A model generated the notes under the pieces. It was not told where the DNA came from and ran no database searches. It was given only the letters and a program-made list of their open reading frames with translations. From an uncultured Porphyromonadaceae bacterium (lineage in GTDB: Bacteria; Bacteroidota; Bacteroidia; Bacteroidales; Muribaculaceae), in assembly GCA_946553045.1 (NCBI GenBank), contig CAMNRO010000009.1:3145-67144 (forward strand): a stretch of 64,000 bases of DNA, given 5' to 3'. Numbering within the stretch: position 1 is the stretch's first letter; the number at the start of each line of letters is the position of its first letter. Positions 61,561 through 64,000 of this stretch are shown here, piece by piece. The position numbers and the translations under genes were made by a program.

Positions 61561-62508
61561 TCATCGATTGTTATAAACAGGTTTGGCGAACCAATAGCCA
61601 TAAGCCTCGTTATCGAGCACATAGATGGCATCAGGATAGCCTCGCAAGTAAGGAGAACGGTCGAAGACCTCCTGCTCATATGCCGGACGCGTCAACTCCA
61701 ATGATATCGTATCTCCAACCTTAACTCTGTCGATCCAATCGCAGTACTCCCTTCGCTCAGCATAAGGCAAAGCCTCCATTTGTGGGTAAAGAATGGGATT
61801 TAATATATTAAACTCTATATCACTATTTAGAACAGTGACAGATATTACATTCGTATCAGCTTTTGTTATTTCATTAACTTTATATAGATTTGATTCCGGC
61901 ATGATTTCAGGTTTCCAAACCAATGTATCCAACCAATCCTCTGGTATAAAATGAACGCTGTCAAGCCAATGGTATCTATGCATTTCATTAGCAGCCTTCT
62001 TAGATATCGCTATTGCTTTACGTTTCCTTTCATCAGATAATGCAATAAGACTATCACCATGGTTGATAATCTTAAAAGCCGAGACATTACGAGGAAATGA
62101 ATCGTCGTAAATATTTCGTTTATGGAGGAAGCCTGACTCTGCTCGAATATCATACACTATATCCGGATTATTAATTATCGCAAGTTCAATATCTTTATTA
62201 TGCCATTGACTCCAGTCTTGGTATATTAGAAGTGTATCATTTGACACCCTCCATTGTCCTATTCGTTCTTTTCCATTGTTATGCAGAACATAAACTTGGA
62301 AATCATCTAAAAACATAATTTCCATATCCACTTCCACCATTTCCTCAAATGGATTCCGATTATCTGAAAAGATATAATAGTTATGATAAACATTTAAGTT
62401 ATAGCTCGCATTTTGTATTGGTGGATACAAAACAACACTAGGCTCTCTTGCTATGCAAAACATAGCAAGAACAGATAATACAAACAATATAACTGATTTT
62501 AATTTCAT
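61561..62508 (-). CDS. Hypothetical exported protein in the immunity position for the upstream Rhs toxin tip
   Basis: N-terminal hydrophobic signal/anchor MKLKSVILFVLSVLAMFCIA. ATGA overlap with the toxin gene stop. A+T-rich, with no family recognised. Confidence 0.55.
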   Translation of the reverse strand: MKLKSVILFVLSVLAMFCIAREPSVVLYPPIQNASYNLNVYHNYYIFSDNRNPFEEMVEVDMEIMFLDDFQVYVLHNNGKERIGQWRVSNDTLLIYQDWSQWHNKDIELAIINNPDIVYDIRAESGFLHKRNIYDDSFPRNVSAFKIINHGDSLIALSDERKRKAIAISKKAANEMHRYHWLDSVHFIPEDWLDTLVWKPEIMPESNLYKVNEITKADTNVISVTVLNSDIEFNILNPILYPQMEALPYAERREYCDWIDRVKVGDTISLELTRPAYEQEVFDRSPYLRGYPDAIYVLDNEAYGYWFAKPVYNNR

Positions 62509-63560
62509 TTTGGATCGGGCTTGAAAACAATGTTATTAAATCTAAACACTCTATTAACTTTTGTTGCCAAATTCTTTAATCCCAGACTCTTATTAGCCCA
62601 TGGCAGAATTATCCAATCGCTTTTACTATTCAACAAGCTATAAACACTTTTTTTTGAATCAGACAAATATGAATAATGTTCTACAATCTCTGAAATTGAA
62701 AACTTATCAGCATTAAATAAAGTTCCACGTTCGTAAGCGTCTATTTCGTCAAATAAATCGTAAAAGAGAGAGCCTCTTGGCTCCATGCCATCAATAGCTA
62801 AATCAATTTCGCCTGTCAGAAACTGATACCCATGTTTGAATTCATGTGCTATCAGTCCTAATGGACCGAATGCACCACCCGGAATCTCAAAAGTGACAGC
62901 ATCCATTTCGGAGTCATAAATAGTTCTGTCGAAATATGCAGCTTTAAACACCCCGTCCACCAGCTCATACGGCCCGATGTATTCAGTCTTGGTGGTGATA
63001 CCTCCGCTCATCTGCGTCCTCGATATGAGAGTGCCGGTTCCGTCGTATTCGAACGACAGCGAGCTCCCGTCATCGGCCTCGATAAGCACCGGTTTGTTGT
63101 GGCGGTTGTAGGAATACGCCGTCATTGTTGTTTCATCGTAAGCCACGTTACCATTGTCATCGTACTGCACTTCGCAATATCCCGAGAGGTTTCCGAATCC
63201 AGTCCGACCCTCAAACACATCGCCTTCGTATTCGATATCGTATCCTACGGCCCGGTTGCCTTCAAGAGTTACGCCCGTCGCATCGAGAATGCCATAGATC
63301 TTGCTCTTTCCGGCGCGGTCGACTACACCCTTGCGTATCAATCCGGTGATATTGGCATTGTCATCGTAACTGTACTCCGTCGAATAGTCGGCAAGGTCGT
63401 TGCCGCTAAAAGCGGCTTCTATGAGCCGACCGAAGCTGTCGTAACCATAGTCATAACGGCCTTCTCGGACCTTGCGCGACGAAATCCGACCGTTATATAG
63501 CGGAACCTTGCCCTCGCTACGAAGCAATGTATCACCAAAATTATCACTAAAGAGAGACAT
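62505..63560 (-). CDS. Orphan Rhs/YD-repeat fragment fused to a C-terminal HExxH metallopeptidase-like toxin domain
   Basis: YD repeats YDYGYDSFGRLIEA, YSYDDNANITGL, VQYDDNGNVAYD and FEYDGTGTLISR. HEFKH at 62832..62846, followed by DEIDAYERG. There is no Rhs N-terminal region. Confidence 0.75.
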   Translation of the reverse strand: MSLFSDNFGDTLLRSEGKVPLYNGRISSRKVREGRYDYGYDSFGRLIEAAFSGNDLADYSTEYSYDDNANITGLIRKGVVDRAGKSKIYGILDATGVTLEGNRAVGYDIEYEGDVFEGRTGFGNLSGYCEVQYDDNGNVAYDETTMTAYSYNRHNKPVLIEADDGSSLSFEYDGTGTLISRTQMSGGITTKTEYIGPYELVDGVFKAAYFDRTIYDSEMDAVTFEIPGGAFGPLGLIAHEFKHGYQFLTGEIDLAIDGMEPRGSLFYDLFDEIDAYERGTLFNADKFSISEIVEHYSYLSDSKKSVYSLLNSKSDWIILPWANKSLGLKNLATKVNRVFRFNNIVFKPDPK

Positions 63561-64000
63561 GACGAACTTCTACAAGATTATAAATTCTGTTATCGTCAAA
63601 ACCATATTTCACAATACCTTTATTTGGTGATAATTTATAATATTCCAAACCATCAAGTTGATAATCTAGTTTATTAAAAAACGGCTCACCATTTTTGGGG
63701 ATTATCGTTATTGTGTCCAGAATATTAGTCTTTTCATAACTCGAAGTTATAAGATACCCACCTATAGACGATGTTAATCCTATTCCTTGTTTTCTTCTCT
63801 TAGAAATATTAAACTTTCCAAGTTTTCTTTGACCATCATGATAAATAATAAATTCATATCCAACATTGGCATGTAATTCATCTGAAACATTAATGATATA
63901 AAATATGTTCCAATTTTCCCAATCAAAACCAAATCTGTTACGAGGTGTATAGAAATGTTTATCATGCACTATAAACATATCAATATTCTGACCATCAGAG
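63547..64000 (-). CDS. Hypothetical A+T-rich ORF (immunity-like, from the preceding cassette); the frame stays open to the window edge
   Basis: The track ORF starts at the ATG at 63978, but there is no in-frame stop between it and base 64000. It ends 14 nt inside the start of the Rhs fragment. Confidence 0.4.
   Translation of the reverse strand, partial: SDGQNIDMFIVHDKHFYTPRNRFGFDWENWNIFYIINVSDELHANVGYEFIIYHDGQRKLGKFNISKRRKQGIGLTSSIGGYLITSSYEKTNILDTITIIPKNGEPFFNKLDYQLDGLEYYKLSPNKGIVKYGFDDNRIYNLVEVRHVSL

Follow-up and report, generated by a model that had tools for sequence, protein, structure and literature searches.

Introduction

In Enterobacteriaceae, orphan rhs-CT/rhsI modules are located downstream of the main rhs gene. 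Cassette recombination in arrays of the rhs type has been described (PMC3482391), and the zincin-like toxins linked to RHS proteins include Tox-MPTase1-5 and Tox-HopH1/NleD (Peptidase_M91), among which Tox-MPTase2 and Tox-MPTase3 come from Bacteroidetes (PMC3482391). The PVC-metallopeptidases (DUF4157) have the signature HExxHxxQ plus a Glu (PMC3482391). Periplasmic HExxH toxins whose immunity proteins are exposed to the periplasm are represented by the VgrG2b C-terminal domain with PA0261 and by Tpe1 with Tpi1 (PMC6899460). Here, a 64,000-nt stretch of the genome of an uncultured Porphyromonadaceae bacterium of the Muribaculaceae (contig CAMNRO010000009.1; the whole stretch is called the window) was analyzed, with emphasis on a 351-amino-acid (aa) open reading frame (ORF) with Rhs repeats near its right edge and the 315-aa ORF behind it. 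This region is probably the distal end, now decaying, of an rhs orphan toxin/immunity array, where an intact immunity gene follows a crippled toxin remnant.

Rhs orphan arrays and HExxH tips are already well known as a kind of system, and the toxin and immunity families of this locus are unnamed. For the delivery of RHS toxins in Bacteroidetes, export through Sec and the type II secretion system (T2SS) and export of the TcdB/TcaC type were listed by Zhang et al. (PMC3482391), and no type VI secretion system (T6SS) had been detected in Muribaculaceae until a recent report (PMC13633076). An earlier note, made from the letters of the window, had read the two ORFs as an orphan Rhs toxin tip with an HExxH motif and its exported immunity protein.

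Results

The 351-aa ORF (coordinates of all features are given in Table 1) was composed of Rhs repeats and an A+T-rich tip, as the earlier note had described. The repeats were matched by RHS_repeat (PF05593) with an E value of 2.2e-5, over the family cut-off, and by YD_repeat_2x (TIGR01643) with 6.5e-6, and the GC content fell from 0.48-0.53 in the YD part to 0.31-0.37 in the tip and the 315-aa gene. In the tblastn comparison, residues 8-218 showed 62% identity to about residues 1490-1700 of the 2001-aa Rhs of a related locus, L007 (MGBC105056; related loci are given by L numbers). No signal peptide was detected in the 351-aa ORF. The RHS-associated core with the DPxG motif at its end (TIGR03696) was matched neither in this ORF nor in its orthologue in L006, and was present in an orphan of L003 (E 5e-12), in a 581-aa ORF of L003 and in the full-length Rhs proteins of L007 and L009, the E values ranging from 5e-12 to 7e-8.

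Comparison with these relatives revealed a deletion. Across the junction the window reads ...TKTEYIGPYELVDGVFKAAYFDR/TIYDSEMDAVTF..., and intact relatives read ...KAVYFDGGYFDAEGK..., then the core, DPDGR RFTAAS, 62 residues and ...GATIYDSDIDAVTF.... The junction AAYFDR/TIYDS thereby removes the core, the cleavage motif and the first ~62 residues of a toxin domain of ~197 aa; the final ~135 of the ~197 residues are retained and about one third is lost. Based on the alignments and on an AlphaFold2 (AF2) model of the full-length family member P0006, the first residue of the window tip was aligned to T126 of P0006. Helices 67-86 and 89-107 and strand 111-117 of the model are absent from the tip, which keeps the domain from strand beta2 onward, including the HExxH and Glu helices and the C-terminal subdomain, which is variable. 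The idea that the first ~62 residues form a separate linker, which would make the tip complete, was rejected, as AF2 puts them in the same compact domain with high confidence; the nearly invariant E37 and S44 of that stretch also oppose it.

The same junction, as YFDG/TIYDS, was carried by L006, which is 94-97% identical to the window, and because it is common to both the deletion is older than their split. The orthologue in L003 (P0001) had another core deletion and a frameshifted end. Because it has no export signal and no core or cleavage module and has lost elements of the fold, the 351-aa product is best regarded as a toxin remnant. As judged from these comparisons, the ORF is a deletion derivative and not a usable orphan cassette; its product would be neither encapsulated nor released, and most likely would not fold into an active enzyme. 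The placement of the locus in an rhs orphan array, which continued both ways, was sound in the earlier note, and the assumption of a toxin tip in working order was not, since the core and ~62 residues are deleted. The locus should be annotated as 'Rhs toxin remnant plus orphan immunity gene', not as 'toxin'. No record was returned by an exact-protein look-up of the 351-aa ORF.

The toxin domain itself was found in full length in L009 (MGBC103306), where an Rhs of ~2000 aa reads ...DPINNTDPTGN/RFTKK... and continues with the same domain as the window tip (~200 aa) to the stop codon. Because it comes after the core of a full-length Rhs, the domain is a true C-terminal toxin of Rhs proteins. When 5.8 billion proteins were searched with a word index, the yield was 5-7 clusters with single sequences and 22 clusters with a profile (clusters at 90% identity); none of the clusters was named, and no Pfam domain besides RHS_repeat was found in them. 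HEFKH and DEIDAYERG were located exactly at the positions first reported for them. The HExxH motif, which had been expected to be conserved among homologues, was invariant in two alignments (A1, 11/11; A2, 21/21 homologues) with identity down to ~25%, and the residues invariant across the 21 sequences were A-H-E-x-K-H-x-Y-Q...G and D-E...Y.R...F. The invariant Asp-Glu, 30 residues past the second His, opens helix 183-195 of the P0006 model, and Glu272 is a candidate third zinc ligand.

The AF2 model of P0006, built on the alignment of 21 sequences, had a pLDDT of 85-95 in the toxin part. One compact domain was displayed, with helices 67-86 and 89-107, strands 111-117, 125-129 and 134-140, the HExxH helix at 147-161, one short strand, the Glu helix at 183-195 and a small C-terminal subdomain; the topology of three strands, HExxH helix and Glu helix looks zincin-like. 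Foldseek against BFVD gave weak matches to SprT-like (E 4.6e-3, probability 0.85) and IrrE-like (E 0.025) proteins. No match with E <1 was obtained against PDB, the sub-significant matches there being enriched in M32, PprI, CapP, PPEP-1 and MATCAP, and a PDB profile search with the toxin domain gave only SIL1 (E 0.33), a chance match. The metallopeptidase models suggested at first as a check did not score: three full toxin domains had no Pfam match at E<=10 (Tox-MPTase2-5, Peptidase_M91 and DUF4157 included), and no toxin-metallopeptidase match was found at E<=0.01 for 21 family members in Pfam. NCBIfam gave no family for the domain. These results support, and do not prove, that the domain is an unnamed zincin-like family of Rhs toxins, the support coming from motif and topology; the intact toxin would be a small gluzincin-like zinc metallopeptidase acting in the target periplasm.

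The 315-aa ORF starts in an ATGA (62505..62508) that it shares with the stop codon of the 351-aa ORF, and its product has an N-terminal hydrophobic signal/anchor segment, both as noted at first reading. HMMER, run in full against 1.84 billion representatives, found 31 relatives (50% representatives), of which 28 were aligned (249-432 aa), and the segment was present in 28/28. The AF2 model was all-beta with two domains (pLDDT 88.7, pTM 0.86). Behind the signal peptide, the protein has a beta domain that varies and bears a lipocalin-like motif, and a C-terminal beta domain that is conserved. No match to the protein was found in Pfam or NCBIfam, with Imm*, SUKH, SuFu and similar families included; Lipocalin_4 touched 1/28 family members. 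Foldseek of the model against PDB gave a best E of 0.011, with nothing consistent or significant. The statement that neither the tip nor the 315-aa protein could be assigned to a named family was upheld by Pfam, NCBIfam and PDB. The exact protein was found on 1.5-kb contigs only.

HMM scans of all loci confirmed the exported ORF as the regular partner of this toxin type, in agreement with the immunity position given to it in the earlier note. A member of the 315-aa family was immediately 3' of the toxin in L001, L003-L005, L007-L009, L011 and the window, and one toxin copy in L006 was directly followed by such a gene; among the loci of Muribaculaceae type, a single one departed from this order. 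For the distant toxins in L010, L012, L013 and L014 the next gene encoded another, shorter protein with a signal peptide or lipobox. Because the partners are exported at every examined locus, the toxin is expected to act outside the cytoplasm, and this suggests a periplasm-acting metallopeptidase, which the 315-aa family would neutralise. A family member was also found directly upstream of the full-length rhs in L009 (4242..5384), a place taken in L007 by an unrelated 333-aa signal-peptide gene. The window immunity gene was 82% identical to its L003 orthologue with a dN/dS (ratio of nonsynonymous to synonymous substitution rates) of 0.21, and it is intact and, by these measures, under purifying selection.

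The intact architecture was revealed by the related loci. In a scan of species-representative genomes, relatives were found only in Bacteroidales and one Cyclobacteriaceae metagenome-assembled genome (MAG), the closest being Muribaculaceae MAGs from mouse gut, and the toxin and immunity families were mainly confined to Muribaculaceae and related Bacteroidales. The 2001-aa Rhs of L007 consisted of an N-terminal signal peptide, DUF6443, YD repeats and TIGR03696, and the gene order there was the coupled 333-aa signal-peptide gene, the full-length rhs and then toxin/immunity cassettes. L003, a metagenome contig of 27.5 kb in synteny with the window (GH31, large surface protein, array), carried six cassettes of the window toxin type, each followed by a signal-peptide protein of 306-321 aa, and one further cassette whose toxin is of another type and whose next gene encodes a 275-aa multi-transmembrane protein. 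Intact orphans of L003 were arranged as MNCLLNITNIF..., then GGYFDAEGKVHYY..., the RHS core, DPDGR and the toxin, and the intact orphans in L003, L007, L012 and L013 all retained the core as handle.

Two other toxin types were observed in the same arrays (L007 12396..13475, L007 5561..11566 at the C-terminus, L003 2697..4518). One was an HExxH orphan resembling Peptidase_M91 (E 2.8e-5), with a gene for a 189-aa signal-peptide protein next to it on the 3' side; the other, with ...LFTNNCADAV..., was followed by the 275-aa multi-transmembrane protein. The M91-like orphan of L007 was considered as a member of the window toxin family and rejected, the hhalign probability being 4%, and the two are different HExxH families.

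Further deletions were found in the related arrays. In the 581-aa ORF of L003 (29..1774), ~186 residues from the start of the 333-aa upstream gene are fused to an Rhs C-terminus that comprises the final YD repeats, core and HExxH toxin, with ~5.7 kb of the main rhs deleted. The whole locus is eroding in several lineages. A second illegitimate junction was observed in L006 (2..108 and 142..543), where a YD piece abuts the NNCADAV toxin, of which the C-terminal half follows; this piece is 97% identical to window 63385..63491, the start of the window YD fragment. Several independent deletion scars are borne by the arrays. A full-length rhs directly to the right of the window is not assured, because the syntenic L003 lost its main rhs.

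For delivery, the full-length Rhs proteins of L007 and L009 had a Sec signal peptide, DUF6443 and RHS_repeat, and no PAAR. The earlier note had expected delivery genes such as VgrG, PAAR or TssB-C near a full-length rhs; no T6SS family was found among the flanking ORFs scanned within ~10 kb of the L007 and L009 rhs genes, which does not bear this out. No secretion genes were seen among the ten large ORFs at 33-55 kb of the window. An SpvB/TcdB-like N-terminus, suspected in the L007 Rhs from a motif, was not reported by Pfam.

The variation among cassettes was determined by a sliding identity profile on a nucleotide alignment of five cassettes. From TIYDS to just past the HExxH helix (62924..62805) the nucleotide identity was 93%, in the remaining toxin and the first ~225 immunity codons it was 40-60%, and in the last ~70 immunity codons (61770..61587), a segment occurring 5 times in L003, it was 91-92%. 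Between two conserved handles, the toxin in its C-terminal half thus varies together with the immunity gene in its first three quarters. Because the variable block spans past the HExxH helix into the immunity gene, the exchange unit crosses the gene boundary and is smaller than a domain. The recombination handles would be the rhs core with the N-terminal half of the toxin up to the HExxH helix on one side, and the last ~70 codons of the immunity gene on the other.

Table 1. Features at the array end of the window, with positions, strand and the basis of each assignment.
Feature	Position	Strand	Basis
143-aa ORF	63547..63978, ATG at 63978, frame open to edge 64000	-	ORF list and sequence
351-aa chimeric Rhs/toxin ORF	62505..63560	-	ORF list; RHS_repeat and TIGR01643 matches
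YD-repeat fragment, aa 1-212	62925..63560	-	tblastn vs L007, sequence comparison, GC
Deletion junction YFDR/TIY in 351-aa ORF	62922..62930	-	comparison with L003 581-aa and 352-aa ORFs, L009 Rhs
Truncated toxin tip, aa 213-351	62508..62924	-	alignments of homologues; AF2 model of P0006
HEFKH (His239-Glu240-x-x-His243)	62832..62846	-	codons CAT GAA TTC AAA CAT
DEIDAYERG (Asp271-Glu272)	62724..62750	-	sequence and homologue alignments
5' conserved handle inside toxin domain, ending at GEIDL past HExxH helix	62805..62924	-	sliding identity profile
315-aa immunity candidate	61561..62508	-	ORF list, family search, AF2, pairing, dN/dS
3' conserved handle inside immunity gene	61587..61770	-	blastn; sliding identity profile
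First 11 codons of next orphan module, MNYLYGISNIY, cut by the insertion sequence	61532..61564	-	sequence; L006/L003 ORF starts
IS4-family insertion sequence, 1414 bp	60118..61531	-	NF033592 E 2.2e-54, DDE_Tnp_1, DUF4372, inverted repeats
IS4 transposase, 413-aa DDE with DUF4372	60208..61449	-	HMM matches

At the left edge of this region, an IS4-family insertion sequence (IS), present in a single copy in the window and bounded by perfect 19-nt inverted repeats, cuts the array at 61531. The next module survives as 11 codons which start in an ATGA overlap with the immunity stop, and kindred module starts were read in a 347-aa ORF of L006 (MNHLYGISNIY) and in the L003 orphans (MNCLLNITNIF). At the IS4 position, L003 carries one more remnant, together with an immunity gene of 312 aa and part of a PALP gene. 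Because there is a single IS copy and no obvious target-site duplication at the element, loss of the cassettes and PALP fragment held there by L003 is suggested to have been mediated by IS4. L006 has the same truncated tip and is without window 60118..62550, a stretch that takes in the IS4 element, the 315-aa gene and the codons at the very end of the tip.

On the right, the 143-aa ORF reaches with its 3' end 14 nt into the 351-aa ORF, as first described. At 34% identity (E 5e-22) it matched a 194-aa signal-peptide protein of L006 over residues 57-192 of that protein, whose N-terminus it lacks. L002, a 557-nt metagenome contig 99.6% identical over 515 nt, contributes 42 nt beyond the window, enough to reveal an in-frame stop 21 codons upstream of the ATG, and the view that a complete gene runs far off the window had to be dropped. 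The ORF is best taken as a remnant, shortened at the N-terminus, of this ~194-aa family, and probably was the immunity gene for another toxin that has been lost. It had no Pfam or NCBIfam match, a metagenome scan with it found nothing, and the exact protein was on a 0.56-kb contig only. A kinship of the 143-aa and 315-aa ORFs through a shared motif, as proposed in the earlier note, was rejected as chance (best BLASTP E 0.21, the named motif itself E 10); the two belong to unrelated families. Scans for sigma-70 promoters and terminators in the region gave results at shuffle level, the sigma-70 consensus being inapplicable to Bacteroidota.

Beyond the IS4 side, a 1493-aa surface protein is encoded convergently with the array (55588..60069, plus strand), with three choice-of-anchor J domains, CARDB, Cleaved_Adhesin and a C-terminal DUF6383. 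The GC content of its gene was ~0.40-0.45, that of the neighbouring chromosome region 0.53-0.60. Because this surface protein also adjoins the rhs array in L003, L004, L006 and L008, the low-GC island may extend over its gene. At 33327..55399 lies a polysaccharide-utilisation locus (ten large ORFs, 33-55 kb), with a SusC/SusD pair, a TIG-domain protein, glycoside hydrolases (GH) of families GH26 (two, mannanase family), GH3 and GH31, a major facilitator superfamily sugar transporter, a GlcNAc 2-epimerase-family protein and a hybrid two-component regulator. The remainder of the window was consistent with a Bacteroidales chromosome.

Discussion

In the intact form of this system, a Sec-exported Rhs of ~2000 aa would carry the RHS-associated core with its DPxG self-cleavage site and then the ~197-aa toxin domain, which would attack the periplasm of target cells as a metallopeptidase and be neutralised by its exported partner. 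In the window, an internal deletion would have joined the Rhs shell (aa 1-212) directly to about residue 63 of the toxin, and the IS4 element would later have truncated the next cassette. The immunity gene was most likely kept as protection from the same toxin type of neighbours or from another copy.

Several observations weigh against this reading. The codons of the tip are not relaxed, with a dN/dS of 0.13 against L006, which shares the deletion, and of 0.22 against L003. The truncated product could still matter, and a residual role is conceivable; the constraint could just as well stem from gene conversion by intact paralogues or from a deletion of recent date. With 0.26, the dS of the tip is threefold that of the adjoining YD part (0.08), which suggests exchange with intact paralogues rather than selection in place. 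L006, where the truncated tip stands without this immunity gene, serves as a natural test in favour of the reading, and the argument is not clean, as L006 keeps a paralogous 312-aa immunity gene. The zincin assignment comes from motif, topology and weak fold matches, with no significant sequence or structural match to a characterised peptidase. Finally, the window ends at 64000, and any main rhs of its own and the remaining array would lie outside this view.

The constrained codons of the tip, together with the open frame of the 351-aa ORF, would also fit a working silent orphan cassette, whose YD stretch would be a homology handle through which tip and immunity gene could recombine with a full-length rhs lying to the right. 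The features are placed and ordered as in rhs orphan arrays, and the YD stretch resembles the late shell of the L007 Rhs at 62% identity. However, a crossover in the YD stretch would give an Rhs without core and DPxG and a toxin without its first ~62 residues, the intact orphans of four other loci (L003, L007, L012, L013) use the core as handle, and the orthologous copy in L003 is likewise core-deleted and frameshifted, which makes a working cassette improbable. Another explanation concerns the role of the HExxH domain, which might serve, like a PVC-metallopeptidase (DUF4157), as a peptidase for processing or release, with the variable C-terminal ~90 residues as the effector. HEFKHGYQ...DE does fit the HExxHxxQ-E signature (PMC3482391), and the HExxH half is a conserved handle, with variation only after it. 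Nevertheless, no match to DUF4157 or others was given by Pfam even at E<=10, the AF2 model is a single compact domain to the C-terminus, and, with the Glu helix situated within the part that varies, the halves cannot be separated into two domains; the preceding Rhs core, moreover, already supplies release. This role is considered quite improbable.

The pairing of toxin and partner is one of gene order, no known Imm family matches the 315-aa protein, and a family member stands upstream of the full-length rhs in L009. The exported protein might on these grounds be an accessory, adaptor or surface protein that is repeated along with the cassettes. Its strict adjacency to the toxin family, often with ATGA coupling, contradicts this, as do the different partners of the other toxin types in the same arrays (275-aa multi-transmembrane and 189-aa proteins) and the change of its variable part together with the variable half of the toxin; an accessory role is accordingly judged highly improbable. 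The decaying end of an orphan array, with a toxin remnant and a retained immunity gene, is preferred over these explanations.

It is possible, and we put it forward tentatively, that the intact cassette is a previously undescribed Bacteroidales pair. Its toxin would be a minimal zincin of ~197 aa (HExKHxYQ...DE..AY.R) on a Sec-exported, T6SS-independent Rhs, and its immunity protein a two-domain, all-beta periplasmic protein; the pair would diversify below the level of the domain, with the catalytic core kept constant and the immunity-contact surface exchanged together with the partner. The two families would enlarge the catalogue for gut Bacteroidales by one more metallopeptidase effector acting in the periplasm and by a new immunity fold. 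Rhs toxins with Sec signals in Muribaculaceae raise the question of their route to target cells. The window is also a clear case of array decay, with core deletion, IS truncation, loss of the main rhs in a sister strain and retention of immunity genes, in keeping with the view that orphan immunity genes persist after their toxins are gone. The interest is modest, and lies with the family and with T6SS-independent Rhs delivery in Muribaculaceae, not with this copy.

Compared with the known RHS-linked metallopeptidases Tox-MPTase and M91, the window family is likewise a small alpha+beta HExxH domain at the C-terminus of an RHS toxin, whereas no Pfam model scores and the motif is HExKHxYQ...DE..AY.R. 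It resembles PVC-metallopeptidases in the short signature, HExxHxxQ with a Glu on the helix that comes next, and in a similar topology, in which three strands precede the helices. Those domains are usually N-terminal and act in processing; here the domain is terminal, after the Rhs core, and has no Pfam match. A putative HExxH zinc-metallopeptidase toxin of the periplasm with an exported immunity candidate recalls VgrG2b/PA0261 and Tpe1/Tpi1, whose immunity proteins expose their bulk to the periplasm by means of a signal peptide, lipoprotein signal or anchor. These are delivered by the T6SS as a VgrG fusion, in contrast to the present system, and their immunity proteins are unrelated; no sequence match to VgrG2b or Tpe1 was found, and neither was among the best 50 of 61 Foldseek PDB matches of the toxin model.

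The array as a whole is closest to rhs orphan arrays, with which it has in common the tandem toxin-coding C-terminal fragments, each with an immunity gene, a conserved rhs piece as handle, the sharp composition change at the toxin, and decay and IS insertion at the distal end. It differs from the arrays of Enterobacteriaceae in its Muribaculaceae host and in a parental Rhs with Sec signal and DUF6443 that is not linked to PAAR or VgrG. Unlike usual rhs orphan arrays, the window copy is without the core handle, and the variable block of the cassettes begins within the toxin and ends within the immunity gene.

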